Shown piece after piece: positions 2,330-63,108 of a stretch of 64,000 nucleotides of DNA. Numbering within the stretch: position 1 is the stretch's first letter; every line of letters starts with the position of its first letter. The notes beneath the pieces were generated by a model. That model did not search any database. It saw only the letters and a list, made by a program, of their open reading frames with translations, and had not been told where the DNA came from. The position numbers and the translations under genes are program-made. Source of the stretch: Stegostoma tigrinum (Eukaryota); the NCBI RefSeq assembly GCF_030684315.1, contig NC_081361.1:32043861-32107860 (forward strand), in the 5' to 3' direction.

Positions 2330-4182
2330 ATGAGAAATATACCAGGTAGGAAATCGCCTGAGTCTGATCAAGTCCATCCTGGGACATTGTGGGAGGCTAG
2401 GGAAGAAAGTGCAGAGGCCCTGCAGAGATTTTTGCTTCATTTTTGGCCACTGGTGAAGCTCTGGAAGACTAGAAAGTGGCTAATGTTATTCCATTCTTTA
2501 AGAAAGGTAGCAAAGACAAGCCAGGGAACTACAGGCCAGTAAGCCTGGCATCAGTGGTAGGTAAGTTGTTGCAGAGGAATCTAAGGGACAGGATCAACCA
2601 ACATTTGGATAGTCTAGGTCTGATTATGAATAATCAGCATGGATTTGTGCACGGGAAGTCATGTCAGACAAATTTTTTTAGAGAGTTTTTCGAAGAGATA
2701 ACCAAGAGGATGGATGAGGATAGGGCAGTGGATGTTGTCTATATGGACTTTATTAAGGCCTTTGAACAAGGTCCCACACAGCAAGTTAGTCATGAAAGTT
2801 AGGTCGCATGGGATCCAGGGAAAGTTAGCTAATTGGATTCAAAATTGGCTCAATAGTAAGAAGCAGAGGGTGATGGTTGAAGGTTGTTTCTCAGACTGGA
2901 GGCCTGTGACCAGTGGTGTGCCACAGAGGTCAGTGCTGGGATCTTTCATGTAAATAACAAATAACAATGATCCGGATGTGAGTGTACAAGGTGTGATTAG
3001 TAAGTTTGCGGATGATGCAAAGTAGGTGATGTTGGAAGCAAAGAAGATTACCAAAATTACAGAAGTTGTCCACGTGTGGAATGAACAGCCAGAAGTAGTG
3101 GACGATATGGGCACAGTTACAACGTTCAAAAGACATTTGGATAAGTACACAAATAAGAAATGTTTGGAGAGATATGGGCCAGGAGCAGGCAGGTGAGACT
3201 AGTTTAATTTGGGATTATGGCCTGCATGGACTGATTGGATCAAAAGGTCTGTTGCCGTGCTGAATGACTCTATCTTGATCAAACAGGGAGGAAGTGGGCT
3301 GAAGAGATAATGGGAACTGCAGATGCTGGAAGGGTCTAGGCCCGAAACGTCAGCTTTTGTGCTCCTGGGATGCTGCTTGGCCTGCTGTGTTCATCCAGCC
3401 TCACATTTTATTATTATGGAAGTGGGCTGAAGATTGGCAAATACAATTCAACACAGATAAATGCGAGGCATTGCATTTTAGAAAGTCAAACTAAAGTAGG
3501 ACTTATACAGTAAACAGTAAGGTCCTGAGAAGTGTTGTAGAACAGAGGGGCCTAGAAGTATAAGTACACAGTTCATTGAAAGCAGCATCACAGGAGGACA
3601 GGGTGGTGAAGAAAGCATTTAACATGCTGGCCTACATAGTCGAGGCATTGAGTTATAGGAGTTGGGACGTCATGTTACAGCTGTATAAGTTATTGGTGAG
3701 GTTGCACTTGGAGTATTGTGTACAGGTTTGGTAACCCTGTTATAAGAAAGACATAGTTAAACTGGAAGATTTACGAGGATGTTGCCAGGACTGGTAGGCC
3801 TGAGTTATAGGGAGGGGTGACCTTACTGAGGTGAATAAAATCATGCGGGGCGTAGAAAGGATGAATGCATATTGTCTTTTTTCCAGGGGTGGGGAAATGA
3901 AAACTAGAGGGCATGGGTTTAAGGTGAGAGGGGTAAAATTTAAGAAGGACCTCAGGGGCAGCTTCTTCACAGTGTTGCAGATATGGAATGGGCTGCTGGA
4001 GAAAGTGGTCAAAGCAGGTACAACAGCAACATTTAAAAAAAGATTTAGATAGGTACATGGATGAGAAGAGCTGAGAGAGAAATGGACCAAATGCCGGCAA
4101 TTGGAACGAGCTAAGTGGGCACCATAGTCAGCATTGACTAGTTTGGGTTGAAGGACCTATTTCCATGCTTTACTACTCTATG
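2330..4182 (+). mobile_element. CR1/HER1-type LINE RT region with nested insertions
   Basis: ANVIPFFKKGSKDKPGNYRPVSL, QHGF, VDVVYMDF, SGVPQRSVLG, KFADD and CR1 3' end. Confidence 0.92.
3306..3417. mobile_element. Minimal inverted PLE-end insertion inside a CR1 LINE, 16-bp TSD
   Basis: TSD ggaagtgggctgaaga at 3290-3305 and 3418-3433. About 25 nt of reversed 3' tail is joined to about 90 nt of the opposite orientation. Confidence 0.85.
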
Positions 4183-5859
4183 AAGTGTTAAGCTACGTAT
4201 TACAGAACTAGAAACATAACAGGCTATTGAGCTCATCAAGTCCACTTGGACTCTCTGCAATGGCAGCTCCGTTCGTCCCACTCCTCTGTCTGTTTTCTGT
4301 AGGTCTGTGGTTTTTGTTCTTTGTTTGCTTATCTAATAGCCTCATGCAGGATGAAGACAAATTGTCGAAAATGCTGCTAACCCCACATCCAATATCTGAG
4401 CAATGCAGGCTAACCAGGGGCTCCAAAGACAAATTGCAACCACAGAAGTGACCTCCTGTGTTTCCACACCTGAAAGCAGACAGCAACATTCTGGAGGTTC
4501 TACAGGCATGGGCCCAGAGGCAAATCTGCAGCATGACCAGCAGCACAGTGATGTGATGGATACAAGGTGAAGCGATAATTATGGGTAATGACCCTGGAAC
4601 ATTTCAAAAGTGACCAAAAATATACAACCACCATGTAGAATGGGAAAATTAATTTCCATTCACAACTGTAAAAGATAACAGCAGTTGCCTTAAATGTCAC
4701 CAAACTTTTTCAGGAAATAGAAAGGCGAATTTGGAACAACACAACACAGTAATAAACAGTGAGTGAATTTAATGATGGGTTTTCCCTGAACAGTATGCTT
4801 CAGATGAACAAAGTTATTGGGCTGTTGCCCTTTGAAAGCTCAGCAGTCATGTTTTTCTAAACCGGCATCAAAAGGTAAGGCTTGAATGGATGAATCAATT
4901 CACGTTTGCCACCTACTGGCAAAACACAAGATCATTTACAGATGGTGAAGGAATTACACGGAATGTCCGAGGAATGGTGAATGGTGTTGAATATTGTGCA
5001 ATTAAAGAATATCCCCTCTCCTGTCCTCATAAAAAATGGAAAGTAAATGATAAAGTAGCTTAAGATGGTTGGTCCTCGGACATTATCCTGAGGAACTCCT
5101 GTAATGAACTGGGACTAAGACAATTGACCTCCAACAACCACAACATTTTCGTCTAAGCTAGCTAGGCATAACTCCAACTTTCAGTCAGTTTTCACTCTAG
5201 GTTCTTTCTGGTTCCAGCTTTGCTTGGGTTCCTTGATGCCATACACAGATAAATACTGCCTTCATGTCAAGGCCAGTAATGCTCAGTTCACCTCTGGAAG
5301 TCAGCTCTTTGACTTTGAAGGCCATAATGAAGTCAAGATATGCGTGGCCCCCAAGGAAGCAACCCTGAGTGACAAGGAACAAATTGTTGCTGCTTAAGTG
5401 TCACTTGATAGCACTACCAATGACCCTTTCCATCATTTTACTTCCAATCAACAACATAATGATAGGATTGTACTTGGCTGGCTGCATATGTCATACTTCT
5501 TGTGGACAGAGGAAACCTGTGCAATTTCGCACATTACCTGGTAGATGCTGGTATTATAATGGTGTTGAATCCTGAAGGCTAAATTAAACTTGGACATTAT
5601 AGGGTGGAACAGTTGAGGTGCAGTGACAGACCTTAAAGCAATATTTCATCACTCTCAGCAATAATATATTCCACAAAGAAACACTCAGGAGATGGATGCT
5701 AACTAAAGGAGTTAGGGATAAATCAAATTGAAAATATAAGTGTACAATTCTGCAACGGCTTGTGATAGGTTTATAAACATTTTAGAAAGGATGACTTTAA
5801 GAAAAGTTAATGTATTAGAGAAAGCTAGTGAGAAATATTTTTTAAAAAGTGAGAACTTC

Positions 5860-5990
5860 CCATTTCTGAAGAAGGGTTCCAACCCGAAATGTCAGCTTTC
5901 CCGCTCCTCTGATATTGTCTGACCTGTTGCGTTCCTCCAGCTCCATACTGTGTTATCTCTGACTCCAGCAATGGCAGTTTTTAGTATATG
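5860..5990 (+). mobile_element. Single-orientation PLE-end insertion (second subfamily), 12-bp TSD
   Basis: TSD agtgagaacttc at 5848-5859 and 5991-6002; starts at ctgaagaagggttccaacccgaaatgtc. Confidence 0.8.
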
Positions 5991-6279
5991 AGTGAGAACT
6001 TCAACTTGTATTTAAAAAGGTATAGAGTAACAAATATGAACATTGGTCCTGTAAAGAACAAGGCTGAGGGATTAGTTATGGAAAGTAAGGAAATGGTAGA
6101 AGTATTCTACAGATACTGAGCTGTCTTCTCTGTAAAAGTTCCAAATAACATCCTAAAATACTTGTAACTCGTGGTGAAATTGAGGGAGAAACTTATAACA
6201 ATTACAATCACCAGGGAAAGGTCCTGAGAAAACTATTAGAACAAAAGGCTGACATGTGCCTTGGACCTGATGGTCCAGG

Positions 6280-11970: not shown

Positions 11971-12695
11971 AAGGATTTTAAGTGTGTGACAGAAGGTGCA
12001 AAAAGATGAGAAGCTCAAAGGGAGATACTGCATGAGCGGAGTTGGAGACTAACAATGTAATTATTGGTGATAGGGGCCGCACCACCATTGTGTCTGTTAG
12101 AAATGGGATAGGTGTCATTAACATTCGGCCATGTTTCTGTTGAGGCCACAATGTCAATGTAATTAAAATCGGATTGGAGTGCAGATGTACCTACTTCAAA
12201 CTGTGCAAGAGTAAGTGATAAACATTGTTTTATATTGAGGCATACGAGATCCTTGCTTTATATAAAATAAAGACTACTGAAAGCAAAGAGTTAAAGCCAC
12301 ACCTCAGGAACAGTATTAAAGCTTTGATGAGGGTGCAGAAAGTATGTTCCAAGACCATGCTGAGAGGAGTTAAATTTGTCCCTTTTCACCAGAATTGTGA
12401 AAGTCTGAAGAAAATGCAGAGCATGGCTGCAGTACAGAAAAAGCATTTGGCCAGTCAAATCAACGTAAGTCCTCTGCCCAAACTAGAAATAATACACCAG
12501 CAGAGGCTTACCCAGTGTTTTATGAAGGTTTTTCATAACTTCCATGCAGTATGTATCAATTTATAAAGGTGAGAATTCCATTTGCAGTTTTTGTCACTTT
12601 TTCAACCTGCTTTCCTACTTAAAACAATTTGCACTCTGGAGCACACCATAGTATACTTTCCTCTATCCAAAAGAAACAACTAAATACCACTACTG

Positions 12696-12914
12696 AGATA
12701 CTAAGATCTGCCAATGCTGGAGTCAGAGATAACACAGTGTGGAACTGCAGGAACATAGCAGGCCACGCAGCATCGGAAGAGCAGGAGAGTCCCAACTCAA
12801 AACATCAGCTTTTCTGCATTTCTGAAGAAGGGCCCTGACCCGAAACGTCAGCTTTCCTGTTCCCCTGATGCTGCCTGCCCTGCTGTGTTCCTCCAACGCC
12901 ACACTGTGTTGTCA
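12696..12914. mobile_element. Palindromic PLE-end insertion (second subfamily, CTGAAGA motif), 14-bp TSD
   Basis: TSD aaataccactactg at 12682-12695 and 12915-12928; motif ctgaagaagggccctgacccgaaacgtc. Confidence 0.85.
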
Positions 12915-13129
12915 AAATACCACTACTGTCGGCTTCAGGTCACTGAACAAATTTTGTACTTACGCTACCAGTGAAGGAGGAATTCAAAGACATGAACAGT
13001 TTTGGACATGCAAATATGACAAGCTACTAATCAGTGCATTGATAATTAGAAGCATAAAATTTAAGACCCCAATTAAAAATTGCCAGAGGTTGTAATTAAA
13101 ATAAATGCAGAGTATTGTTAGGAAACAGC

Positions 13130-17100: not shown

Positions 17101-17660
17101 AAGAGGCAGAAAGGATGCTCCAGCGAATGGAATCCCGGTCAGAGCACACTGGGAATACTTACAGCAGGTCTGGTCACCACACCACTTGAAGGATATACTG
17201 GAGCTAGATTCCTACATTATCAGGAGATATTGCACAAATAGAGTTGTATTATCCTGAATTCAGAAGATCAGTGGGTGATTAAATCAAAGTTTTCAAGACA
17301 ATAGTATGAACGAGAAAGGGACAAAAACAATATATGATGGCTGGACAATTTCAGAGCCAAACATCTGAGTGAAATTAGCAAAGTGTGGAGCTGGATGAAC
17401 ACAGCAGGCCAAGCAGCATCTCAGGACCATAAAAGCTGACGTTTCGGGCCTAGACCCTTCATCAGAGAGATGACCCTAGAACCTCTCTGATGAAGGGTCT
17501 CAGCCCGAAACGTCAGCTGAGATGCTGCTTGGCCTGCTGTGTTCATCCAGCTCAACACTTTGTTATCTTGGATTCTCCAGCATCTGCAGTTCCCATTATC
17601 ACTGAGTGAAATTAGCAACCATTTACCACACAGGATAGATGTTTAGAACTCTCTTTGACA
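14150..17660 (+). mobile_element. Old, long CR1 ORF2 remnant (APE to RT) with an antisense CR1 (about 14335-15030) and a PLE nested inside
   Basis: IFTEARLQDSQDWELNIAGY (APE-like) and decayed RT motifs; the antisense insert gives RALVRPHLEYCEQF. Confidence 0.7.
17382..17601. mobile_element. Short palindromic PLE-derived insertion with two inverted hammerhead-like motifs and 17-bp TSD
   Basis: TSD ctgagtgaaattagcaa at 17365-17381 and 17602-17618; motifs at 17438-17465 (-) and 17487-17514 (+). Confidence 0.9.
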
Positions 17661-17707
17661 AAGGGCAATTTATCTTGGAACTTAAAACAATTGCCATCAT
17701 CAGGAAA

Positions 17708-19061
17708 TGTGAGGTTGGATGAACACAGCAGGCCAAGCAGCATCTCAGGAGCGCAAAAGCTGACGTTTCGGGCCTAGACCCTTCATCACAGAGGGGGATG
17801 GGGTGAGGGTTCTGGAATAAATAGGGAGAGAGGGGGAGGCGGACCGAAGGTGGAGAGAGTATAGGTGGGGAGGTAGGGAGGGGATAGGTCAGTCCAGGGA
17901 AGACGGACAGGTCAAGGAGGTGGGATGAGGTTAGTAGGTAGGAGATGGGGGTGCGGCTTGGGGTGGGAGGAAGGGATGGGTGAGAGGAAGAACAGGTTAG
18001 GGAGGCAGAGACAGGTTGGACTGGTTTTGGGATGCAGTGGGCGGAGGGAAAGAGCTGGGCTGGTTGTCTGGTGCAGTGGGGGGAGGGGACGAACTGGGCT
18101 GGTTTAGGGATGCGGTGGGGGAAGGGGAGATTTTGAAGCTGGTGAAGTCCACATTGATACCGTTAGGCTGCAGGGTTCCCAAGCGGAATATGAGTTGCTG
18201 TTCCTGCAACCTTCGGGTGGCATCATTGTGGCACTGCAGGAGGCCCATGATGGACATGTCATCTAAAGAATGGGAGGGGGAGTGGAAATGGTTTGCGACT
18301 GGGAGGTGCAGTTGTTTGTTGCGAACCGAGTGGAGGTGTTCTGCAAAGCGGTCCCAAGCCTCCGCTTGGTTAGGAGGCTTGGGGACCGCTTTGCAGAACA
18401 CCTCCACTCGGTTCGCAACAAACAACTGCACCTCCCAGTCGCAAACCATTTCCACTCCCCCTCCCATTCTTTAGATGACATGTCCATCATGGGCCTCCTG
18501 CAGTGCCACAATGATGCCACCCGAAGGTTGCATATTCCGCTTGGGAACCCTGCAGCCTAACGGTATCAATGTGGACTTCACCAGCTTCAAAATCTCCCCT
18601 TCCCCCACCGCATCCCTAAACCAGCCCAGTTCGTCCCCTCCCCCCACTGCACCAGACAACCAGCCCAGCTCTTCCCCTCCGCCCAATGCATCCCAAAACC
18701 AGTCCAACCTGTCTCTGCCTCCCTAACCTGTTCTTCCTCTCACCCATCCCTTCCTCCCACCCCAAGCCGCACCCCCATCTCCTACCTACTAACCTCATCC
18801 CACCTCCTTGACCTGTCCGTCTTCCCTGGACTGACCTATCCCCTCCCTACCTCCCCACCTATACTCTCTCCACCTTCGGTCCGCCTCCCCCTCTCTCCCT
18901 ATTTATTCCAGAGCCCTCACCCCATCCCCCTCTCTGATGAAGGGTCTAGGCCTGAAACATCAGCTTTTGTGCTCCTGAGATGCTGCTTGGCCTGCTGTGT
19001 TCATCCAGCCTCACATTTTATGATCTTGGATTCTCCAGCATCTGCAATTCCCATTAACTCC
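17708..19061. mobile_element. Penelope-like element 3' end (GIY-YIG C-terminus plus pLTR) as a 1.35-kb palindrome with 15-bp TSD
   Basis: Arms about 17705-18363 and 18373-19018, 9-nt spacer. Encodes RFAEHL...PVANHF...EQQLIFRLGTLQPNGINVDF. TSD gccatcatcaggaaa at 17693-17707 and 19062-19076. Confidence 0.92.
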
Positions 19062-20091
19062 GCCATCATCAGGAAAGGCTTGTTAAGAAAACTTTTGAAA
19101 CTTAAGACTAAAGTCTCAGGACATCATGGATTTCAGTTGCAGAGATGATAGATTCCTACATTCCAGAAAATTTCAATTAGATTGGAAAATAGTGAATCGA
19201 CCTCCCCTATTCAAGACAAGAGGGAGACAGAAAGCAAGAAGCTACAGGCCAGTTAAACTATTCCTGTTCTTTTTACCTATGAAATTAAAGTCACTACAGT
19301 CCCTTCGGCCATACGCTGCTCTCTCATTAGACAGACAACTGGTGAAAAATCTAACCTGAGGGTCACCACACTTCAGGTGAAGGACAAGGCTGAGAATGTG
19401 AGGTCTTCAGGGTGACCTCAGCCAGTATAGATATTAACCTGTGCTGTTGGCGTGACTGTGTGTCACAAACTAACTGCAAAGGCAACAGAGCTAACCAACC
19501 GCCACAATGGGGGCAAAGATCAGAGACTTTGTAGATGCTGTTGCTAAAAGGCATGACGCAGGTATTACCATTCTAATAGGCTCCAGGTTAGTACCCAGCC
19601 CAAACAATGGGATAGCCTGCCTAATGGGAGGGCTATGAGATTCTGAAAGTGTTAAGAGACAGCAGTCTGTTATGGTTGTTAAGATCAGGAAACAAAAATA
19701 CCAGATGCTATCTATTCTCAAGTTTACCAGCATCAGAGCGATTGTTACGGCTTCTACAGAGCTGTGGGTATCCACTGGTGCTTAAATGCTTTTTAGGTCG
19801 ACATCTGTTGCAGGTTGCAATCAAGCTGCTAGAGACTCCACCACGGCCCTGTTGTGCTGCAATGGTGGTGTCCCTACCCCTGGACTGGGAAGCCCGTGTT
19901 CAAGTCCCACCCGCTCTAGAGGCGTGCAATATCTCTGAACTGGTTGGTTAGTAAAAATAGGTATACCCTCTATTAATTCCTCCAAAAAAGAAATAGCTTT
20001 CTGGCTGTCACAAATGAGAGCTATTGCTTGAACAGTTGCTTCTGTCAATTGTCACACATCCCTAAAGACTGACCTCTGTCAGTGCATAGTA

Positions 20092-21711: not shown

Positions 21712-22058
21712 CCGTACTGTGTGGAAACAGACCATTTGGTCCAACAAGTCCACACCAACCCTCCAAACAGCATCCCACCCAGGCCCATCTCCCCACTCTT
21801 TCCCTGTAACCCTACATTTCTCATGGCTAATGTGCCGAATCTATGTATCTCTAGAAACAATGGGGCAATTTAGCATGGCTAATCCAGCTGACCTCCACAT
21901 CTTTGAACTGTGAGTGGAAACCAGAACACCCAGCAGAAGCCCATGCAGACATGGGGGGAACATGCAAACTCAACACAAACAGTTGCCCCAGGGTCGAATT
22001 GAATCCTGGGTCCCTGGCGCTGTGTGGCAGCAGTGTTAACCACTGAGGCACCGTGCTG
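21712..22058 (-). mobile_element. HE1-like SINE
   Basis: Same family on the minus strand. Confidence 0.88.
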
Positions 22059-22231
22059 CAGACTATGGAGGACGGTGCATGTAATCAGTAGGATGTTTCC
22101 TTGCCTGTGTTTCACCTAAAGCCATGAAACTTCCTGGAATCCAGTGCGAATGTTAGGACTTGCTCAAACCTTTGAAGAAAGGAGTTGGAGTGACACGTTG
22201 AGATTGTACAGGATGTCGGTGAGGTCTCTTG

Positions 22232-22605
22232 TCGAGTCATACAGCTTGGTAACAGACCCTTCAGTCCAATCACTCCATGCCGAACATAATCCCAAACTAA
22301 ACTAGCCCCACCTGCCTGCTCCTGGCCCATATCCCTCCAAACCTTTCCTATTCATATACTTATCCGAACATTGTAATTGTACCCACATCCACCACTTCCT
22401 CAGGAAGTTTACTACACACGCAAACCAGCCTGTGTAAAAAAATTTTGTCTCCTCTCACCTTAAAAATGTACTCCTTTGTCTTGAAATCCCCCATCCTACA
22501 GAAAAAACAACAATCATTAACTTTATCTATACCACATATTATTTTATAAACTTCTATCAGATCACCTGTCAACATCCTATATGCCAGTTAAAAAAGTCCC
22601 AGCCT
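22232..22605 (-). mobile_element. CR1/HER1 3' end
   Basis: LTGDLIEVYKII...KLPEEVV plus tail. Confidence 0.85.
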
Positions 22606-24202
22606 ATCTTGTTCATGACCCCACCCCCAACCACGTAAACATCATCCCCAAGATCATCCACAACCTCATCACTTCAGGTGAGCTCCCACCCACAGCCTCC
22701 AACTTAATCATTTCCCAACCCCACACAACCAATTTCTATTTTGGGCAGCACGGTGGCTCAGTGGTTAGCACTGCAGCCTCACAGTGACAGGGACTCAGGT
22801 TCGATTCCAGCCTTGGGTGACTGTCTGTGTGGAGTTTGTATGTTCTCCCCGTGTCTGCGTGGGTTTCCTCAGAGTGCTCCAGTTTCCTCCCACAGTCCAA
22901 AGATGTGCAGGCTAGGTGGAACGGCCATGCTAAATTGCCTGTAGTGTTCAGGGGTGTGTGGGTTATAGGGGAATGGGTCTGGGTGGGAAGCTTCAAGGGG
23001 GCGGTGTGGACTTGTTGGGCTGAAGGGCCTGTTTCCACACTGGAGAGAATCTAATCTAATGTAATCTCCTTCCCAAAATCCACAAACCTGACTGCCCTGG
23101 TCGCCCCATTGTCTCCGCCTGCTCCTGCCCCACTGAACTTATCTCGACTCCATTTTCTCTCATTTTAGTGCAGGAACTCCCCACCTATGTCCGTGACATC
23201 ACCCACGCCCTCCACCTCCTCCAAAACTTCCGATTCCCTGGCCCCCAACACTTCATCTTTACCACTGACGTCCAGTCCCTAAACACTTACATTCCCCATG
23301 CAGATGGCCTAAAGGCCCTCCGCTTCTTCCTCTACCGCAGGCCTGACCAGTCCCCCTCTTCTGACACCCTCATCCACTTAGCTGAACTCGTTCTCACCCT
23401 TAACAATTTTTCTTTCAATTCCTCCCACTTCCTACAGACAAAGGGAATGGTCATGGGTACCTGCATTGGCTCAAGCTATGCCTGCCTCTTTGTACATTAC
23501 GTGGAACAATCTCTCTTCTGGAGCTACACTGGCCCTACCCCCACCTCTTCCTCCGCTATATCAATGACTGTATCGGCGCCACCTCGTGCTCCCACAAGGA
23601 GCTCAAACAGTTTATCCACTTAACCAACACCTTCCAACCCAACCTTAAGTTCACCTGGACCATCTCTGATACCTCTCTCTCCTTCCTGGATGTCTCTGTT
23701 TCCATCTCTGGCAACCACCTGGAAACCAATATCATTTCAAGTCTACCAACTCCCACAACTACCTAGAATACACCTCCTCTCACGCACCTTCCTGCAAAAA
23801 TGCCATCCCCTGTTCCCAATTCTTTCGCTTCCACAACATCTGCTCCCGAGAGGAGGCATTCCACTCCCAGACATCCCAGATGTCCTCGTTTTTCAACGAC
23901 CTCAACTTCCCTTCCACAGTGGTCAAAAACACCCTCGACCGTGTCTCTTGCATTTCCCGCAACTCATCCCTCACACCCCCTCCCAGCAATAACAACCAAA
24001 ACAGAATCCCCCTTGTCCTCACGTACCACCCCACCAACCTCAGGATCCAACGCATCATCCTCCGGCACTTCTGCCATCTGCAATCTGACCCCACCACCAA
24101 AGACATTTTTCCCTCCCCACCCTCAGCTGCTTTCTGGAGGGACCACTCTCTCCGTGATTCCCTTGTCCACTCCATGCTCCCCACCAGCCCCACCACATCC
24201 CG
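22605..24202 (+). pseudogene. Degenerate Penelope-like reverse transcriptase ORF fragment, interrupted by a SINE
   Basis: FY|LLPKIHKPDCPGRPIVS, DVQSLNTYIPH, NNFSFNSSHFLQTKGMVMG, RYINDC (decayed YIDD), RIPLVLTYHP; multiple frameshifts. Confidence 0.9.
22743..23062 (+). mobile_element. HE1-like SINE inserted into the PLE RT
   Basis: Full head, core and tail; splits the FY/LLPKIHK coding sequence. Confidence 0.9.
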
Positions 24203-25294
24203 GATATGAATAGGAAAGGTTTGGAGGGATATGGGCCAAATGCAGGCAGGTAGGACCAGTTTAGTTTGGAAACATGATCAATGGGGACTAGTTGGATCGA
24301 AGGTTCTGTTTCTATACTGTACTGTTCTATGGCTGTATGATTCTAAGTAGTATACTTCTTATATTTTGGAGTTTTCTGAGGATCATTTGAATGACACCGT
24401 GGCCACATTTCACAGGAGGTAGTTGACAACCTGCTCCACAGCCACTGCCAATTTTAAAACATGCTTCCTAATCTAGTCTATACAATGCTTAAATCTGCCA
24501 GGTGTACAATGCAAGGAATACAATAACCAAACTGTTAACATGGTGAATCAACTCTTTCCAACTAAAATGACTGTCCTTCCCACTTTCGTCATCCTCCCCT
24601 TTCTTCTCTATCACATATTACAACTATTTTCCCTTCATTTCCCTTTGTGTATCTTCTTCTGTTACTGTTGCTTTTCCTCTGCCCAGCAAACTGTATGGTT
24701 TCTGCGCACTTTCAAAGTACATGTGCAAAATTCCACAACAACGAAATATCACATCACAGACATGAGTTATAGAACAGAAATTACCTTAAAAAGCATTTAA
24801 AGCAGAGTAAATGAAGCCTGCTGAGATGAGAAGTATCAATTAATGCCTACTGTTACATTCTTGTCTTGATCTCTAATAACATATGGAGATTTCATTATAA
24901 ATATAGACTCTTTTTGATTGCCACACAGAACTAATATTCCGTGCTCTTTGGGGTATTCTGCTGGAAATAGGTCAGTTTATTTTGAAAACAAATCTTTTGA
25001 TGTACTACAAGAAAGCTTCTATATAATTTCTCAAGCTTAATTACACCTTACACACTACATACATCACCATACAATTTTTGTTTATATATTTTATTCACTA
25101 TCTACACATGCTTAAAATTCAAATTATTTTGGTGAATATTATTCATTTGCTTGCCTGCAACTAGAAAGTTTATTGTAATTAGGTATCAAATTTCAGATGC
25201 ATTCCATTTGGTCTGAATTCCAGAACACAGCCACAAAGCCGTTTTTGTTTCGGATATTTTAGCCGCTTTCAAACAACATCGAGGAAAAGAGAGG

Positions 25295-38262: not shown

Positions 38263-38264
38263 CA

Positions 38265-38840: not shown

Positions 38841-40187
38841 CTTATTTTTTTTCAAAGGGAATTCTGCCTTCCCAGTTACTGACTGACCTTGAAGACATCT
38901 CCCAATTGACTGAATGCCACTGTTCTGTCATCTCTACTTTATTATGTTGCTGCTTGTTGTGTGTAAATGGATAACTATTTTCAGAAACGTGCATGGCATA
39001 TGATGCTATAGCCACAACAGCCAAATCACAAACAATTAAATATCGTAATAAAATTGTTCCCAAATATTGAACCGGAAATTGACAAAGATAGCAAAAGGTG
39101 TATTGAACTTTTGAAAACAGGCTGGTGCACAGTTTTGCTAGAGGTGTAGCGTTTTGAACACCATGTAAAAATCTAGTGAATAATCAAAATTATACAACGG
39201 TCAAGGACAGGATGAGTTTAAAACTGTGGGATGCTGAAACAAAGTGCTAAATGGAACCGGTAAACAAGACAAGGATTAGCACACACTCCTCACTCTCTCA
39301 TGGAATGCACGTAAAATGCTAATATTCACCAAATTACTTTAGTAATAGTCTACCTGAATATAATTAGTTTGTATGTGGTCAGTGATCAGCAAACCCTACA
39401 CAATCGTACTGTTGCTTTGAGGACATTGTGAGCTCAACTATAAATCAATTATCATTTGATAGTGAAAAGGGTAGACAATAAGAAATGCAAATAAGCACTA
39501 TGTATGTCCTGCACACAAACAGGCTGCAGAACTATAATTGTGCAGGGTAGTAAAACAAAAAATGTGCTCAAAGTAAAGTAATCACAGAATATAGTGTTCA
39601 TTTGTCAGCCTTGACCAACAATATTGTTGAAATGATTCCAAAGCTGTATAATTTTGCACAACAAAATCAAACCACCAACTGCAACAGAAAAATATAGAAA
39701 TGCAATTTAAGAAGCAATAATTTCAGATTATTCATTTTCCAACTAGCAGTTTGATAGCTCCTTACTGCGCTACTAATTTCTGGAAAAATCACATAGCACG
39801 AAAATGAAGATGATTTTGAGAAGTGCGTTAAATGATAATTTACAGTATAAGTCCCAATGCAAGGATGATGATGAAAATTAAAACCATTTTGCACCTTTTG
39901 CAGACATTAAGAAGTTGAAAACAGTTCAACTGCATTGCAGTTCAATTTTAAACTGTTTAATTTTACAGCAAACAGATCATTTGGTTCATCCAGCTTGCAC
40001 TGACTCCCCAAGTGCTAACAACTTTCTTAGAGCAACTTAAAGCTTTTCAGAAAACAACTTAATTTTTCTTCAGATATTTCTCATTTTCTGTTTCAACAGG
40101 TATACTTGATTCTGTTCCCACCATTGTTTCTAGTTAAGCATTAAGTAATGACCTTCTGAAATAAAAACCATCCTAATCTCTCCCTTA

Positions 40188-41215
40188 TAATAAAATGTGA
40201 GGCTGGATGAACACAGCAGGCCAAACAGCATCTCAGGAGCACAAAAGCTGACGTTTCGGGCCTAGACCCTTCATCAGAGAGGGGGATGGGGAGAGGGAAC
40301 TGGAATAAATAGGGAGAGAGGGGGAGACGGACCAACCCTCCCGAACCGGTTCTTCCTCTCACCCATCCCTTCCTCCCACCCCAAGCCGCACCCCCAGCTA
40401 CCTACTAACCTCATCCCACCTCCTTGACCTGTCCGTCTTCCCTGGACTGACCTATCCCCTCCCTACCTCCCCACCTACACCCTCTCCACCTATCTTCTTT
40501 ACTCTCCATCTTCGGTCCGCCTCCCCCTCTCTCCCTATTTATTCCAGTTCCCTCCCCCCATCCCCCTCTCTGATGAAGGGTCTAGGCCCGAAACGTCAGC
40601 TTTTGTGCTCCTGAGATGCTGTTTGGCCTGCTGTGTTCATCCAGCCTCACATTTTATTATCTTGGAATCTCCAGCATCTGCAGTTCCCATTATCTCTGGT
40701 ATCAATGTGGACTTCACCAGTTTCAAAATCTCCCCTTCCCCTACTGCATCCCTAAACCAGCCCAGTTCGTCCCCTCCCCCCACTGCACCACACAACCAGC
40801 CCAGCTCTTCCCCCCCACCCACTGCATCCCAAAACCAGTCCAACCTGTCTCTGCCTCTCTAACCGGTTCTTCCTCTCACCCATCCCTTCCTCCCACCCCA
40901 AGCCGCACCCCCCGCTACCTACTAACCTCATCCCACCTCCTTGACCTGTCCGTCTTCCCTGGACTGACCTATCCCCTCCCTACCTCCCCACCTATACTCT
41001 CCTCTCCACCTATCTTCTTTACTCTCCATCTTTGGTCCGTCTCCCCCTCTCTCCCTATTTATTCCAGTTCCCTCTCCCCATCCCCCTCTCTGATGAAGGG
41101 TCTAGGCCCGAAACGTCAGCTTTTGTGCTCCTGAGATGCTGTTTGGCCTGCTGTGTTCATCCAGCCTCACATTTTATTATCTTGGAATCTCCAGCATCTG
41201 CAGTTCCCATTATCT
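40188..41215 (+). mobile_element. PLE insertion: inverted arm plus partial tandem pLTR copies, 15-bp TSD
   Basis: Inverted arm 40188-40335; forward copies about 40345-40697 and 40698-41215. TSD ctaatctctccctta at 40173-40187 and 41216-41230. Confidence 0.92.
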
Positions 41216-41895
41216 CTAATCTCTCCCTTAGTTCTTTTGATAACCTCACAGCATCTTATTACTGCTTTAACAGAGGAAACAGATTGTGTCTATCTCAAGA
41301 AAAACCTCAATACTTGTGAACTCTTCTGAGTCGCAACAAGTTCATGAAAAGAATCACTCTCTTCCTAGCCAGAAACCCATTTCCTGGATACTGTCAGAAC
41401 GAATCTCTCCCCTACCAACTCAATAAAGCCCAAACACCAGGGATGACAATTTTAGCAACATGATAACCTTCTTCCCTACAGCTCCATACGATAAGCAGTT
41501 AATGCTCAAACCTCAACATCTGTAAACTGTTTTGCCAAACTGACTCACTATCTGGACTGCACAAAGATCAGCATAACCAGCAAACTTTGCAAGCCTTGTT
41601 TTATTCAGCAGTCATACGCTGATCAAGAACAACTCACAAAGTAAACATTCAAAGTAGCATCTCAGACAGCACGTAGATGTTTGAAAAAACAAAATGCTCA
41701 ATCAGGAAAGTACGAAGGCATGCCTAGAGAGACAGCTCGAATTGGGTACAAACTGGAGAATGGATGCAAGCCCAAGAAAGCAAAAGCAAACCATAAAAAT
41801 CCTGAGTTAATTGGAAGTCAGTTAAAAGCAGTGGTCAGTTCAAATAACTTGCCCCCAGTAGGCCCTCTGAATGCACATCTTTCTGGACGATTTCA

Positions 41896-42444
<549 letters not shown>

Positions 42445-42445
<1 letters not shown>

Positions 42446-43093
42446 GGGTATACAGCCCGGGTATAGGGTACACAGTCCGGGTATAGGGCACACAGCTCGG
42501 GTATAGGGCACACAGCCCGGGTATAGGGTACACAGTCCGGGTATAGGGCACACAGCTCGGGTATAGGGCACACAGCCCGGGTATAGGGTACACAGTCCGG
42601 GTATAGGGCACACAGCTCGGGGATAGGGCACACAGCCCGGGGATAGGGCACACAGCTCGGGTATAGGGCACACAGCCCGGGTATACGGGACACAGTCCGG
42701 GGATAGGGCACACAGTCCGGGTATAGGGCACACAGCCCGGGTATGGGGACACAGCCCGGAGATAGGGCACACAGCCCGGGTATAGAGGGCACACAGCCCA
42801 GGGATAAGGCACACAGCCCGGGTATAGAGCACACAGCCCGGGTATAGGGCACACAGTCTGGGTATAGGGCACACAGCCCGGGTATAGGGGACACAGCCTG
42901 GGTATAGGGCACACAGCCCGGAATAGGGCACACAGTCTGGGTATAGGGCATAGAGTCCAGGAATGAGGCACACAGCCCAGAATAGGGCACACTGCCTGGG
43001 AATATGGCACACAGCCCGGGGATAGCGCACACAGTCCGTGAATAGGACTCACAGTTCGGGGATAGGGCACACAACGCGGGAATAGGGCATAGC
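42445..43093. repeat. 20-bp minisatellite (gggtatagggcacacagccc), about 32 copies, with a 60-bp higher-order repeat
   Basis: Directly visible; 42481-42540 is identical to 42541-42600; units degenerate toward 43090. Confidence 0.97.
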
Positions 43094-46000
43094 GCATGAG
43101 CTGGTCATGGAGCTCGAGTGCGAATTTCGGGAGTGGGTCTCAGAGCCTGGGAGCACACCTCCAACAATCTCTGCGCACACTACAAAACACAGATAATTTG
43201 CACAATCTAATCGATTCCGTACGGTGTGATTCCGTGTTATTTTCACTATCGTATTTAACTCGTGGGTAACCAAGTTACTAGAGACAATCTAGTTTACTCG
43301 GCATACTTCTTATTTTGAACGATGTCTCACCACAATACCTCAACAACTGGCCGTTTCTTAATAAAGCTGCAAGTGTTTCGTGTGTTCTGAACATTTACTT
43401 TGCACAATGTGTCAGCGTGGACATATTTCAATTATCTGGGATTTAATCCTCCATAAAATTCCAACGTCTGAATGAGAGGGGCGGAGCATGATCAAACCTG
43501 TTGCAAAATGAATGCATTGCCCTACCCAATTCAGAAAAGAAGTTTATAAAGATCGATTTTAAATAAAAAGAATCTAATGTTTGCCTACAATTGCAGCGTC
43601 ATCAGAATTTTACCCCCGAATGTTCTATGTCGTGCGCGAAAAGTTACATTTAAAGGACGCTGGTCTCATTACGAGTTTTGATTTTCATTTGGTCTCATTT
43701 GCAAGACGTTCCAGCTCAGCTTGTGTTCCAGCCGCAAGAAAATCATTGGTGTCTCGCGTGCATATTTTGGTGTTACGACCGTATCAAATGCATGGCCTGC
43801 CCTGAAGTTAACTGCATATATACTGATGATTTTCAGTTTTGAAAGTTACCATGTGTTGCACTAATTTGCAATCGTATCCAATGCTTTTGTAAAAGCAGAG
43901 ATGACTCAGAAATCACATATGTTTACAAGCCCCTAAAAGGCCTCCAATGAGTTGGATGTGTCCTAAAACTACTACTCTGATGTATATATTTTTTACTGAA
44001 ATTTTATGATACTCTCGCTGCCCTGCTGCAGGAGGAAAGGAAATAAAGCATCACCGATCATTGCTAATTTTACAAGACAACGGTGGCATACTGGTAATGT
44101 CACTGCAGAAACAATCTAGGACCCCAGACGAAGGCTAATGAAAGTTCAACAGAGTTAGTGAATCCGGAATTGCAAGCTCGTGTTTAGAGTGGTGGCAACC
44201 ATTACGTCAAAGACCGAACAGGTAGAGGGGCTCTTCTGACACAGTCGTAGTGTCCCTACCCCTCTGCCACAAAACCTGAGTTAAAAACCCCACGTCCTCC
44301 AGGGCTGTGTCATAACACAGCTGAGCAAGTGAATTCAAAATATCTATTATAGGACGGGTACACCTTCAGTTTGTGGGTCCTAAGGAACAGAATCCATTCT
44401 ACAGAAACTCCATTCCTATTCCAGTTAATTGATCATCTTTTGCAACATCTGGCGCTTTTTTTTAAAGAAAAGAACCATCTGGTTCACTAATGCCCTATAG
44501 GGAAGGTGATCTGCTATCCTTTTATAGTTTGGTCAGTGTATGACTCTACAAGCAATGTGGTCGAGCCTTGTCTATCAAGTCACTTGGTTCAAGGGACAAT
44601 TCGTGATGGATAACATCCCACGAAAGACAAGCTAAATACCTCAAAATAAAGCAAAATCTGTAGGTTTTCAAAGCCAAAAATCAATCGAATGGGTAATTCT
44701 CGTACGACGTTTTCACATCAGGAATTCTGCCATAGTGGTTATTCTGGCCTGGAAGTTACCTGCTGCACGGAGTCAGAAGAACTATCCCTTCTAATATGCA
44801 TTCGCTCGCTATCGTTTGTTGAAAACACTCCCTACCCCTAATTTACCCGTAGTGTGCTCCATTCACGCAAGTTGCGTTTTGCATTCCCTACTCAATGGCA
44901 TCTGGATGCTGAGACAGAAGTGAATCCAGGTTCATATCAAATGACGGTACATTTTTATTTGACGTCTCAAAACTGATTTTGTATTGGAGAATTGGAAGGG
45001 TAAGTAATTTTAAAATGAAACGTAAAAGCATTTTGAGACACATCATGAAATATTAAACTGGGTTAGGGGCTGTAAGAGGCAGTTAGGACAATGATAGGTA
45101 GGAATGGGGGTTATGAGGACTCATTGGTGAAAGGCGAGAATGGGTTGGCATACAAGTGCATATACAGCAAGTGGTGAATGTGTGCGAGGAGGGTGCTGGA
45201 GACAGTCTAATATTTAACACAACAGGATCTATTAACTGTCACATCTTGGGACTTGGCAGCTTCTATCCTCGGAAATAACGTTCCACCCACCATTCTTCCC
45301 TGATTCCGCACATCCACCTAGAGAGCAAACCCCAGGATTCCTCAGCCTGAGAAAAACAGCTGCTGTTGTAACAAGCTGACAAAAAGGACCAATTTTTTGC
45401 TTTAACCACGAAGCGCAATGCCGGTGCGCGCGCACACGCAAACTCCGTGTTTAGCGAGATGAAGTTTTTATGTATTTAAGGACCATAGAATTGCCAGAGA
45501 GTGCTTACACGTGGAAGTCAAATCAATGAGGCTCAGAAGCCTGAGTAATTGGATATTATTTTAAAAGGAAGGGCTGCGGAAAGAGATGGTGTTGGAAGAA
45601 ACCTGGGACTTTACAGAGAAGAATACGTTTCTGCTCCATTACTCGCAGCAACGGAATGTGGCGTTTTTGCTGTGTTAAGAAATCAATGAGGAACGCCTTC
45701 TCCCTAACTGAGTACATTTGTTGCCAAATAACCAATGTTTAGTCAATGTTGAATTTAGTTTGCTTGCTGTTTGAAACATTAAGATGCAATTCTTTGCATT
45801 GGTCACGGAGAAATTCACGTCTCTTTTCAAAAAAAAATCATTGCTCCCAACAGGGATTAGGGTAAACAAGTGTTTAGATTTCATGGAGCAATAATGACAA
45901 TAACTGTTTCCTTCCATTACTAAAAACGAATGGAAAACTTATTTTGTTCTTTCCAAGAAGGGATTGAAGCTAAATTGTATGACAGGTGACCTACTATAAC

Positions 46001-50812: not shown

Positions 50813-50841
50813 CTGTGGAAACAAAAGAAACACATTTAGTT

Positions 50842-51070
50842 TTCGGAGATAACACGGTGTGAAGCTGGATGAACACAGCGGGACAAGCAGCATCAGAGGA
50901 GCAGGAAAGCTTAACGTTTCAGGTCAGGACCTTTCCTCAGAAGAAGGGTCCCGACCCAAAGCGTCAAGCTTTCCCTGTTCCTCTGATGCTGCTTGTCCGG
51001 CTGTGTTCATCCAACTTCATACCGTGTTATCTCAGATTCTCCGGCATCGGCAGTTCCTACTATCTCTGTG
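50842..51070. mobile_element. Palindromic PLE-end insertion about 30 nt from a METTL13 splice acceptor, 10-bp TSD
   Basis: TSD acatttagtt at 50832-50841 and 51071-51080; inverted arms of about 90-100 bp; decayed motif at the centre. Confidence 0.85.
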
Positions 51071-51829
51071 ACATTTAGTTGTCAGTCACTTTTCTGTTAT
51101 ATGAACCTGTTAACAGTGGATGCAGGATTGGGATGAATGGAAAACAGTAAGTACACAAACATCTATCAGAAAAATCAGAACTTCTGGCTTTAATTCAAAG
51201 TTCCCAAAGTTTAAAAAGACTTTAGAGGTAATGATACCAGTAAATATAAAATTAAGGAGATCAAGTGCCGTTGCAAATTATTGTAAATGATAACTTCGAA
51301 AATATAACACAATCAAAATCCAACACATTAAAATTTCAATCCCCCTCAACTGATTTAACCATTTGTGGATTATTTCTGGAGTATATATTTGGGCCAGAAC
51401 TATGAAGCAGAGGAAGAGAAAACTACAATAATTACTCACATTTGCTATTTGTGAAAAGCATACGACAGAACTAAGCTAGTGATGCCCTAGATTTGCTAAT
51501 GCAATAAACATAAGAAAGTCACGCTTGGTGCGGCATGTCAGCTCAGAATGTGGATAAAAATACAAGTGGAACAATGGGGTTTGGAGATCAGAAACTAGCT
51601 ATTGTTTCCATCCCCTCACCTAGAAAAATATGAAATATAATATGAAAGGAATAGTTGGAACATAGGACACTTCATTAAATCAATAGTTTCCAAACTCAGA
51701 GGCAAATGAAGCAATCTCAAGGGATAGCGAAACAGATTTGCTCGACATTAAAACGCGGGTGAAGATGTGGCTGACACTGTGATACACCCCATTCCTTGTA
51801 AATATATTTCAGTGTTAAAATTGGCATGA

Positions 51830-53130: not shown

Positions 53131-54276
53131 CCGAAGGGATTGGACAGGGTCAGCATGGAGACATTGTTTTTCCCTTCTGGGACAGTGTAGGATCCAAGGA
53201 CATAATCTCATTGTAAGGGGTTAAGAGACAAGGAGAATCTCTTTCTCTCAGAGGGTAATGACGGTACAATTCTTTATCACAAAGGGCTGTTGAAGCTGGG
53301 TTGTTAAGATCACTTGACCAAGGGGCAGCGCTCGGAAAGGGAAATTTAGAAAATTAACACCAACACATTCACTACTTCCTCAGAAACCTCTTTTGAGACC
53401 TGAGGATGAAATCCATTTAAACCTGGAGATTGCATTATCTTCATCAATCTTCAAAAAAGTAAAATGACATGGACTTTAAAAAACAAAAGGCAAACTGAAT
53501 GAATCACATTGCAAGTGGTGTAAAGCTGAACAAAATAAAATGGATTCCAGAAAGTGAGCAAGTAAAATAAATTATTCTGTTCCTGGGCCGCTTTCCCGGG
53601 TCAGTTTGTAAGGTTGACGATAAATTCAGATAGATTTAGATACAAAGGGTGAATGCTGATGCAAATGTCCAATCTGGGTGGAGTGGGGTGGGAGGGTTGT
53701 TTGTCAGGCATTGTTGAAGATTTGGAATTCAGAAAATGGCTTCAGCAATTAATTCAACTCTATGGTCTCAAGGATAATAAAATTGCAAAACAGGAGAAAT
53801 TTCTTCAGAGAGTGGTGAATCTTTGGAATTCTCTACCCAAGAAGGCTACGGAGATTAAATAATTGAGCAGGTTTCAGAGAGAAAATCGATACGTTACTGG
53901 AGACAACTGCCATGAAGGAATATGAAGATTGCCATTTTCCTGCACTTTGGAGGAGAAGATCAGCCATTATCTAGAAAGACAGGGCAGACTCGATTGGTTG
54001 AATGGCCTACTCTTGTTTCTATGTTCCGATAAAAAAAACCTCCTGTGATATTAAAGGATGCCATGGCAATCTTTAGCATAATTCAAAATCTTGCTAGTCA
54101 TAAAAAGTGTGCGTGCACATGGTAGGTGTGGGGGTGTATATGCTTTTTAAGAATGGCTACTGAACAAATTTAGGCTATTGTACACTCATTAGCATGGAAG
54201 AAAGGAGGAGTAAGATTAATTAGGGAAGCACAGTGCACTGCTGTACAAACGTTGATCTGCTAGTAGGATTCCTTAC

Positions 54277-54489
54277 CGCTGTCTGCGACCGTATGAATAT
54301 AGCTCAAGCCATCTGCCAGAATCACCTTCATTCGATCATCTTGAGAAAACCCAAACCATGTGGTTGCCACCTCCAACACCATGGGGTCAATTTCAATGGT
54401 GTCAACGGTCGATTGGGAGAAATAGTCATGGATAAATGATGGAAGGCTGCCACCGCCTAGGCCAACCACGAGCAGAGAAAAGGGAGTGT
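54277..54489 (-). CDS. METTL13: METTL13 internal exon (about exon 6), SAM-binding motif I of the C-terminal methyltransferase
   Basis: LLVVGLGGGSLP...IEIDPMVLEVATTWFGFSQDDRMKVILADGL; acceptor ctctttag|AC, donor AGCG|gtaagg; 213 nt. Confidence 0.95.
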
Positions 54490-54719
54490 CTAAAGAGCAA
54501 ACAAAAAAAAACGAAAGCTGGTCACCCAAGCAAACAATTCTGTGTACAATCAAGATGTCACTATTCAAAAAGATCAAGAGTGATAAACTCAGAATGCTGC
54601 TTGAAAAGCTTCTTTCTAAAGAGCTGCAAAGGAAATTTCAGCTAAACAAATTTCCAGTATAGTATTTACTGTATCAGCAGTCACGTTCAGGGATAAAACA
54701 CTTAGGCTTATATCTCAGG

Positions 54720-60270: not shown

Positions 60271-60429
60271 CTCGTGGTCTTCTATTAGTTAGCCAAATCT
60301 TTATTCATGATAATACACGATCCCAAACACATGTGCTTAATGAAGTGTGGTCCCTTATCAAGTGCCTTTTGAAAATCCAAATACACTACATCTACCCTAT
60401 TCATTTTTATCTCCCTTGCTTGTTACCTC

Positions 60430-61693: not shown

Positions 61694-62129
61694 CTGTGCG
61701 AAAACAAGAGTCAATTCTGTTCAAGGGAAATGCTAACTGCTCAAGCTGCTCATTCTCCAGGGGAGAAATGCAAACCCACCGCCACATTCAAGGAACATTC
61801 ACTGTGTCGGACAAAGTGAAAGAGCGTGATCCATCAGCTTGTTAAATTGCAAAAATTATTTCCAAATCGTAAAGGATAATTTGAGACAGGATGTCTGAAA
61901 ATGCCTCAAACAAATCTTCTAAATAAAAGCACAATGATCACACACAGTAGGTCCCTAGCACTTTTCATAATGACAACTTATATTTCTATCAAAGCCATAA
62001 TGCAATGAAGCATCCAAAGATTTTCAGAAGACCACTTCACTGGGCAGTTGCAGAGTTATTATAATCAAAAGCTTGGTCAGAAGCATGTTTTAAGGAGAGT
62101 CTTAAAGGAGGGAAGCAAGTGGTCAGCCA

Positions 62130-62380
62130 TGGTTCAGTTGACAGCAAACCTACCTCTGAATTACAACATTGTGGGTTTAAGCCCATTGCAGAATTTGAGC
62201 ACAGAAATCAAGACTACTGTTCCAGTTCAAGGCTCAACACTGCACCATCATCTTACAGATGAGGCATTAAACCAAGGCCTCTTCTGTGTCCTCGGGTATA
62301 CGTTAAAGATTCCATGACACTACTTCAAACAGCAGAGGAAACACCACTTGGTGTCCAAGTCAAGGTTTACCTTGTGCACT
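62130..62380 (+). mobile_element. Old Deu-domain-like SINE fragment
   Basis: cagatgaggcattaaaccaaggcc...gttaaagattccatgacacta core. Confidence 0.55.
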
Positions 62381-62871
62381 CTTGTAAAAGTCAATATTGA
62401 CCACGGTTTCTCAAAAACTAAACCAACTGCAATTATTACTCACCAATAACTGCACAGCTTGGCCCATTGCAGCCATAAACAATGGTGGAACAAGTAAAAT
62501 TGCAGGTGACCAAGCAGTCAGAATTAGAGGATCATAGATATCTGGGAGGGTCATGGGGATGGTAAAGCCACGAACATAATTTTACAATCAATACAAATCA
62601 ACGAGCAGTGATTGGGGCATGGGACTTGCTGAGAGTTAAGAACTGGATGGCCTCAGGTTTAAAGTGGGTAGAATATGGGAGACCATCCAGGTGTGTATTA
62701 AAATAGTCACGTCAAGAGGTAACAAAGTCATGAATCAAGCTTCCAGCAGCAGATATACTGACACGGGGGAAAAAAAAAGAGGTCAGGTAATGATATGGAA
62801 ATAGACAATCAAAATAAAAAGTCACTCAATTTCCAGGTCATCATAGTTAAAGTTAAATAAAGGTGTTAGTA

Positions 62872-63108
62872 ACAGGAACAAAAACAAAGTTGCCAGAAAA
62901 GCCCAGTAGGTCTGGCAGCATCTGTCAAGGAAAATACAGAGTTAACGTTTCAGGTCTGGTGACCCTTCCAGTTCTGAAGAAGGGCCACCAGACCCGAAAC
63001 GTTTATCCCGTTTTTCCCTTCACAGATGCTGCCAGACAGACCTGCTGGGCTGTTCCTGCAACTTTGTTTCTGTTCCCGATTTACATCATCTGCAGTTCTT
63101 TTGGTTTT
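62872..63108. mobile_element. Palindromic PLE-end insertion (third subfamily) with imperfect 14-bp TSD
   Basis: taaaggtgttagta (62858-62871) vs taaaggtattaata (63109-63122); motif gttctgaagaagggccaccagacccgaaacgtt, mirrored in the left arm. Confidence 0.8.

Follow-up and report, generated by a model that had tools for sequence, protein, structure and literature searches.

The 64,000-nucleotide window analysed here, from the shark Stegostoma tigrinum (contig NC_081361.1, positions 32,043,861–32,107,860; G000:C10:32,043,861-32,107,860 in our searches of the 3.2-Gb assembly), carries eight insertions derived from Penelope-like elements (PLEs), seven of which consist of two arms in opposite orientation. 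The initial annotation of this DNA had located them correctly: every start coordinate held, seven of the flanking target site duplications (TSDs) are exact and 10–17 bp long, and the TSD of the eighth, at 62872, is imperfect. In all seven two-armed cases one TSD pair encloses both arms, so that each is a single insertion event, as had been proposed. We number positions along an arm from the C of the hammerhead CUGA (+1), with natural copies serving as rulers; the outer end of an arm lies either at the end of the tail or at an internal site before it. In an example of the −4..+127 unit (41086..41216, + strand), the putative transcription start is at 41086, the minimal hammerhead motif at 41090–41117, the internal end at ~41180–41185 and the tail end at 41216.

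The insertions, given without strand where two-armed, fall into three subfamilies. In subfamily A, the insertion at 3306..3417 (112 bp; TSD 3290–3305 / 3418–3433, 16 bp exact) joins an inverted tail (3306–3330, +101..+125) through a 2-nt overlap to a forward arm (3329–3417, +6..~+94), and because the two arms do not overlap along the element it is twin-priming-like and not palindromic, with a self-complement score of 8 against a shuffled maximum of 18. At 17382..17601 (220 bp; TSD 17365–17381 / 17602–17618, 17 bp exact) lies a run-off palindrome composed of an inverted arm (17382–17469, −4..~+85), 12 nt of filler and a forward arm (17482–17601, −5 to the tail). The long head-to-head insertion at 17708..19061 (1354 bp; TSD 17693–17707 / 19062–19076, 15 bp exact) has an inverted arm to the internal site, a junction near 18372 and a forward arm to the tail end, with the end of the endonuclease open reading frame (ORF) present in both arms. 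In that at 40188..41215 (1028 bp; TSD 40173–40187 / 41216–41230, 15 bp exact), an inverted arm (40188–40335, −58..+90) and a forward arm (40337–40696, −236..+127) are followed by a tandem forward unit (40700–41215, −390..+126). Subfamily B comprises a single arm at 5860..5990 on the + strand (131 bp, ~−6 to the tail end; TSD 5848–5859 / 5991–6002, 12 bp exact), an insertion at 12696..12914 (219 bp; TSD 12682–12695 / 12915–12928, 14 bp exact) built of an inverted tail arm (12696–12789), a short sense fragment (12800–12817) and a forward arm from ~−5 to the internal site, and a run-off palindrome at 50842..51070 (229 bp; TSD 50832–50841 / 51071–51080, 10 bp exact) with an inverted arm to the internal site (50842–50941) and a forward arm to the tail (50936–51070). 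Subfamily C is represented by the run-off palindrome at 62872..63108 (~237 bp; TSD 62858–62871 / 63109–63122, 14 bp with 2 mismatches), whose inverted arm (62875–62968) ends at the internal site and whose forward arm (~62970 to 63108) ends at the tail. The statement that all insertions but 5860 contain an inverted PLE 3' end thus holds for the arms, which are present at all seven two-armed sites, 5860 being single-armed, but the palindromic description does not extend to 3306. Nor can all eight be called mini-elements: the window inserts span 112–1354 bp, and 17708 (1354 bp) and 40188 (1028 bp, with its tandem unit) are too long for that term.

These inserts are ends of autonomous PLEs that encode a reverse transcriptase (RT) and a GIY-YIG endonuclease (EN+), in the published layout of inverted pseudo-long terminal repeats (pLTRs) set head to head, with a tail at one end and a TSD (PMC3846280, PMC8557442, PMC2377424, PMC8969392). 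The PLE origin suggested initially is borne out by the longest head-to-head insert in our sample (L132:4108-7992), in which one TSD pair encloses a single open frame with RT and C-terminal GIY-YIG matches. One of its arms is open for 753 aa (RVT_1, E = 3e-5; GIY-YIG, E = 0.0026, both below Pfam's curated cut-off), the protein carries YIDD and YIG motifs, and near-identical loci have open frames of up to 1151 aa. Its linker contains C-X4-C-X2-C at residues 570–578, before the endonuclease; a CX2-5CxxC linker in this position is described as typical of Neptune/Nematis PLEs (PMC8557442), the clade to which the element would belong by this feature. Long copies of all three subfamilies run into PLE coding sequence (13 of 20 long B copies and several long C copies among them), which substantiates the earlier count of at least three subfamilies. 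At full-length loci the hammerhead and tail continue directly into the ORF start, and the hammerhead/tail unit therefore stands at both ends of the element. The window also holds an older, frame-broken PLE reverse-transcriptase ORF fragment (23060..24209, + strand), which is without a 3' end and separate from the eight insertions; it was labelled by comparing its translation by eye with sampled PLE ORFs and has no Pfam match. Pfam searches of six window frames returned one weak match only.

The hammerhead-like motif reported initially was recovered by pattern (core CUGA[UAG]GA, stem II, GAAAC) at 11 window arms; 3306 and the left arm of 17708, which are without an intact core, did not match. 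The pattern agrees with a minimal type I hammerhead in its CUGANGA core, extra base, stem II, GAAA and palindromic helix III stub, and in subfamily A a 4-bp stem II folds. Helix I has 2 bp in subfamily A and 4 bp in C, as judged by eye, against 4–5 bp in the published definition (PMC4209133). Rfam gave no hammerhead match, only 4 weak unrelated hits, and the predicted minimum free energy structure of the monomer pairs the hammerhead core with downstream bases (z −0.67). Hammerhead cleavage was considered as the origin of short templates and rejected, since the ends of 147 arms do not accumulate at the predicted cleavage site, +29: 8 arms end at +27..+33 and 12 at +34..+44, and two (+29,+29) junctions coincide with an AGCT palindrome.

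Arm structure was quantified in a 1.5-Mb sample of the same genome, comprising ten blocks over five contigs (1,519,000 bp including the window, with a triplicated part removed). The removed part, block C14a beyond 55 kb, corresponds to units 2 and 3 of a ~25-kb triplication; in that region (L061–L070, G000:C14:30.0-30.1 Mb), three tandem copies of the unit carry the same set of PLE inserts. The sample contains 170 clusters of A/B-type 3' ends (76 head-to-head, 89 single-arm and 5 other), or one per 8.9 kb, in agreement with the density of about one insertion per 8 kb estimated from the window alone, and genome counts likewise show that the high copy number is real. The 76 head-to-head insertions divide into 66 simple and 10 complex ones, the latter being left out of the pair statistics. 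One pair, at C3b 155509, duplicates C3b 112205 in its junction and 80 bp of flank; it was excluded from the length-class and haplotype tables and retained in the arm-end and junction counts. TSDs of at least 10 bp were found at 58 of the 76 head-to-head insertions compared with 7 of 300 random spans treated by the same routine, and TSD length ranges from 9 to 20 bp with a mode of 14–16. The same head-to-head layout spans 67 bp to 3,885 bp, two thirds of the simple inserts being 67–233 bp. Short head-to-head forms occur once per 32 kb of sample, which extrapolates to ~100,000 short A/B inserts genome-wide.

The arms obey simple rules. Their outer ends cluster at +85..+102 (the internal site) and +115..+127 (the tail end) in the A/B sample, and 74 of 76 head-to-head insertions combine a tail-ending arm with one that ends ~35 nt earlier (binomial p = 4e-20, with one pair being the local duplicate); C-type pairs have one arm of each kind in 10 of 10 cases. 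The 89 single arms are split between the tail (42) and the internal site (47). The two outer ends match the two RT start sites that bound the tail of an Anolis PLE in vitro (PMC11167929). Arm lengths are coupled: both arms are short in 44 of 65 simple pairs, both are long in 21, and none is mixed (rho 0.78, n = 66; 0.52 within the 21 long pairs). Paired arms also share variants, agreeing at 311 of 345 polymorphic cells (90%) versus 0.60 under random pairing, with a maximum of 0.71. A deletion junction common to both arms of 17708 was found exactly in no other of ~70 arms, and at each of L152 and L154 both arms bear the same internal junction. In the 66 simple pairs, the tail-less arm reaches more than 5 nt further 5' in 33, the tailed arm does so in 16, and the two are within 5 nt in 17; in 4 pairs, 3306 among them, the tailed arm starts beyond +80. 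The 33 pairs with the longer tail-less arm and the 4 with the late-starting tailed arm show that the arms are not plain copies of each other. At the junction, the gap between arms is −6 to +19 nt in 64 of 66 simple pairs.

L152 and L154 merit separate mention. Both are large palindromes (L152:931-2175 and L154:1001-1967) in which each arm joins the 5' repeat and ORF start (to +324 or +283) to the last 130–144 nt before the 3' hammerhead, and both have a 3306-type centre. They are likely to represent internally deleted, non-autonomous PLE templates.

Short and long inserts do not behave as separate families. When the 44 short simple inserts were clustered by fold-back junction, 41 distinct junction pairs were obtained, and junctions were shared about as often as under permutation (4 pairs, expectation 3.3; p = 0.36 for exact matches and 0.08 within 2 nt). 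Exact matches to the 3306 junction number 5 in the 3.2-Gb assembly and differ in subfamily and structure, being three short inserts with differing subfamily variants and ends and two centres of larger structures. Genome-wide, 5,767 fold-backs have both arms reaching +1, the commonest junction being the perfect one (718, or 12.5%), yet the 15 perfect-junction loci that we examined fall into 6 haplotypes, their internal ends range from +82 to +104, and 14 of them have a TSD. The same main haplotypes occur in 98 long and 140 short arms (5 duplicate loci removed; the short set was enriched by pattern-selected loci), and the smallest p over 34 columns, 0.009, fails correction. Equal terminal inverted repeats and a TSD of fixed length, as expected of a miniature inverted-repeat transposable element (MITE), are likewise missing, as the arms differ by the tail in 74 of 76 insertions and TSD length varies. 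The initial suggestion of a propagating MITE-shaped family is thus contradicted by the diversity of short junctions and by the haplotypes common to short and long arms. Its alternative, repeated extreme truncation, comes closer but is incomplete, as it does not cover the preference of the short forms for one stopping site or the joint stopping of the two arms. The layout itself is ordinary, and nothing here amounts to a new element family.

The preferred stop lies just upstream of the hammerhead, where short arms pile up around −7..+10. Ruler-position peaks at 0, −2, −1, −14 and −20 in the sample are partly artefacts of divergence between subfamily and ruler, and the boundary was therefore taken from exact sequence patterns, which were used for all genome-wide boundary counts. 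On this basis 104,276 arms reach −4, 82,519 reach −7 and 76,317 reach −10, corresponding to a fall of 20.9% from −4 to −7 followed by one of 7.5% from −7 to −10, the second drop serving as a mutation yardstick. Where a non-A base lies ahead of it, the base before −4 is G in 3,327 cases vs A in 1,059 genome-wide. By eye, the first 100 listed rows have C in front in 14 (G) and 58 (A) instances; such rows are probably point-mutated long arms, and removing them leaves roughly 2,900 G vs 450 A. Joins after G number 323 vs 53 after A, although the A-join lies nearer to −4, and in the sample G precedes 5 of 7 arms ending at −4/−5 vs 17 of 54 ending at +1..+44. Arms ending near −390 also recur (window 40700, sample C14a 35325, L204), as do ends at −480 and −521, all of which could be further truncation hot spots.

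Upstream of this boundary, long arms carry a TATA-like box, TATTTATT, at 41056..41063 on the + strand in the example unit, with the first T at position −34, which lies 30 nt before the putative start. The first T is at −34 in 60 of the 66 long A arms in which the box was located, at −35/−36 in B, and at ~−33 in C (8 of 16 rows), where it is followed by a TCAGTT-like, initiator-like motif with A at −4. The comparison with TATA and initiator elements used the general core-promoter consensus, and the box may act as a promoter. On the opposite strand the box (41056–41064, and in other long arms) reads AATAAA, a possible antisense polyadenylation signal.

We consider it rather probable that the inserts are built anew at each integration by two RTs primed on both cut target strands, and that the short forms are cDNAs that ran off the 5' end of a probably capped mRNA. 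In vitro, the Anolis PLE protein cuts and extends both target strands and starts reverse transcription at two internal RNA sites delimiting the tail; it is predicted to dimerize, and it requires an RNA that covers the beginning of the ORF, up to +172 (PMC11167929). An untemplated 5' G in L1 and SVA insertions has been interpreted as a copied cap (PMC4859970). In the proposed scheme, a staggered cut of ~15 bp would be made at the target, and each cut strand would prime one RT, one per start site, on one RNA or on RNAs from one locus. If transcription starts at −4, with the extra G being a copy of the cap, both RTs would run off such an mRNA within 100–130 nt, and the two cDNA 3' ends would be joined via 0–6 nt overlaps or filler. 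Where the template continues upstream of −4, both arms would lengthen to give long inserts; the additional template could come from tandem read-through, from circular RNA, or from a jump to the 3' repeat resembling the strong-stop transfer of retroviruses. At L198, an arm that extends from the ORF into the 5' repeat ends at −2, with a junction of the same type.

In retroviruses and LTR retrotransposons, minus-strand strong-stop DNA is a short cDNA made from an internal start near the RNA 5' end, which must move to the 3' repeat. For PLEs the comparison is an analogy only, as the process would be target-primed, with two start sites and direct integration. Carried further, it leads to a more speculative reading, which we put forward tentatively and which may well prove wrong: PLEs would start at two sites near the capped mRNA 5' end, one per target strand, producing a pair of strong-stop cDNAs that are joined as a ~220-bp hairpin if no further template or 3'-repeat transfer is available, while otherwise both arms are extended and the promoter is regenerated as a pLTR. 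If true, the short inserts, ~100,000 by extrapolation, would preserve the traces of an LTR-like step within a target-primed element, and tail, inversion and pLTR would be explained together.

Several observations weigh against the run-off model. Inserts mixing a long and a short arm, L204 and L198, exist outside the 65 simple pairs, and the 10 complex insertions are absent from the 2 × 2 table of length classes. Arm similarity can also arise by gene conversion after insertion, mimicking a shared template. Point mutation and subfamily variation account for part of the drops in arm counts, and many short arms end downstream of −4, with 21 of 147 at +1..+10 and 33 at +11..+44. As to the extra G, RT can add an untemplated C at any template end with no cap needed, and at the single-arm loci L209 and L224 the G falls inside the TSD; both the start site and the cap are read from sequence. 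Among ORF arms reaching the 5' hammerhead, 3 of 4 examined loci pass −4 (L194 to −177, L197 to −140 and L199 to at least −377), a result that implies frequent use of longer templates or seamless jumps. Moreover, the Penelope promoter of D. virilis is TATA-less and internal (PMC2377424), and a promoter reading is therefore not transferable from that element.

Other explanations account for parts of the same evidence. One, which we regard as unlikely, is that short solo RNAs of the −4..+127 unit, made from an internal promoter or by read-through in the manner of short interspersed nuclear elements (SINEs) or retrozymes, are mobilised in trans by the PLE protein, with the mirror arm still made at insertion. 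In its favour, single arms that begin near −4 are frequent, the sample containing 89 single-arm clusters; D. virilis Penelope is reported to have an internal promoter (PMC2377424); and non-autonomous PLE derivatives exist (PMC8557442; bioRxiv 10.64898/2026.07.22.740005). However, long and short arms have their main haplotypes in common, the short arms are without the TATA-like box, and solo copies are without the ORF RNA to +172 that the Anolis protein needs (PMC11167929). It is also quite unlikely, in our view, that −4, instead of marking where transcription begins, is a point at the foot of hammerhead helix I where RT stalls or the RNA is processed, the extra G being plain terminal addition. 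Position −4 is where helix I would start if it had 4 bp (AGUU/AACU in the sequence of subfamily C), in D. virilis the 5' end of helix I coincides with an intron end (PMC4209133), and one third of inserts pass −4; but a per-enzyme stall does not predict that both arms pass or fail jointly, helix I has only 2 bp in subfamily A, the TATA-like spacing is kept across sequence-divergent subfamilies, and arm ends do not accumulate at +29.

Two further explanations concern the palindrome itself. Self-priming, in which one cDNA folds back and primes its own copy (as in PMC3846280), a process that makes one arm a DNA copy of its partner and leaves the hairpin to be resolved by the endonuclease, would readily yield matching variants and coupled arm lengths, and small palindromes (AGCT, GAGCTC) are present at some junctions. 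We nevertheless judge it improbable, since the arms cannot be mutual copies where the tail-less arm reaches more than 5 nt further 5' (33 of 66) or the tailed arm starts beyond +80 (4), an objection made here to the plain-copy version, the published version using an antisense template. Finally, the inserts could constitute a non-autonomous palindromic family copied as a unit, as the initial annotation had it. The high copy number and the perfect junction, the commonest with 718 copies, would suit such a family; yet that junction makes up only 12.5% of fold-backs, the examined loci vary in haplotype and internal end, short junctions are mostly distinct (41 of 44) with sharing at the permutation null, and, were a palindrome copied whole, its ends would not fall at two RT start sites. 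This idea is already largely refuted, and we hold it to be very improbable.

The origin of inverted pLTRs and the one-sided tail in PLEs is debated, with self-priming, circular RNA or endonuclease resolution having been proposed; published accounts of EN+ PLE inserts put forward self-priming or endonuclease resolution (PMC3846280, PMC8557442, PMC2377424). These accounts describe the same head-to-head inverted, 5'-truncated copy within one TSD pair, the 30–40 nt tail at one end only, partial tandems, and TATA- and Inr (initiator)-like motifs in the pLTR, whereas the short majority with a preferred stop, the rule of one arm per site and the short/long coupling are counted here. The Anolis Poseidon element PAc resembles ours in its two RT start sites delimiting the tail, extension of both strands, hammerhead at the pLTR-ORF junction and predicted dimer, but belongs to another clade, and the paper, as far as its available text goes, does not treat inverted genomic structures, run-off at the mRNA start or a cap G (PMC11167929). 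In Schistosoma, dual minimal hammerheads on opposite strands, 100–700 bp apart, form the same dispersed, truncated, opposed pairs, but receive a one-sentence mention in the text available, without TSDs, junctions or an inversion mechanism (PMC4209133). Non-LTR retrozymes are likewise short, non-coding, hammerhead-bearing derivatives of PLE pLTRs, including in a cartilaginous fish, but are head-to-tail tandem units, unlike the inverted, TSD-flanked and dispersed inserts described here (bioRxiv 10.64898/2026.07.22.740005). Instead of the two or more head-to-tail hammerhead units of a retrozyme, our short forms hold one or two opposed motifs, a tandem being present only in the long 40188.

In LINE-1 (L1) inversions, the internal priming sites vary and the arms do not overlap, whereas in the PLE inserts both start sites are fixed and the arms usually overlap. 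The likeness lies in twin priming, in which the RNA is also primed by the second target strand and an inversion with small indels results (PMC4859970). Our literature search, which did not extend to key older papers, supplements and repeat libraries, found nothing on short palindromic PLE inserts in sharks, PLE start-site run-off or a PLE cap signature, and, within the same limits, no description of the rule of one arm per RT start, of the both-short/both-long coupling or of a 5' pile-up behind a TATA-like box. Thus, although the layout is known, the arm regularities give a specific, testable model of PLE copying: the genome offers more than 100,000 young arms with countable ends, which suggest that priming occurs at two sites on one template and that the RNA begins at a defined position immediately ahead of the hammerhead. 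For annotation, the short forms should be treated as PLE fragments and not as MITEs or microRNA-like hairpins.

Apart from the PLE inserts, the window contains what we take to be a dynamin-like first exon (42072–42236, + strand) and, 12 kb downstream, presumably a methyltransferase exon resembling METTL13 (54260–54637, − strand). Pfam gave only a weak Spermine_synth hit for these exons; the first intron of the dynamin-like gene may contain the METTL13-like gene in antisense orientation. Directly after the dynamin-like exon, a degenerate minisatellite (42282–43139) generates spurious Cys/Pro-rich frames. At 21719–23040, nested inverted pairs of another repeat, 79–84% complementary and unrelated to PLEs, are probably two opposed ends of SINEs or long interspersed nuclear elements (LINEs). 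Elsewhere in the sample, a 917-aa open frame, presumably of a CR1-like LINE, adjoins a PLE insert in the L049 region (G000:C3:60.038-60.040 Mb, loci L044–L045), which suggests a second young retrotransposon.

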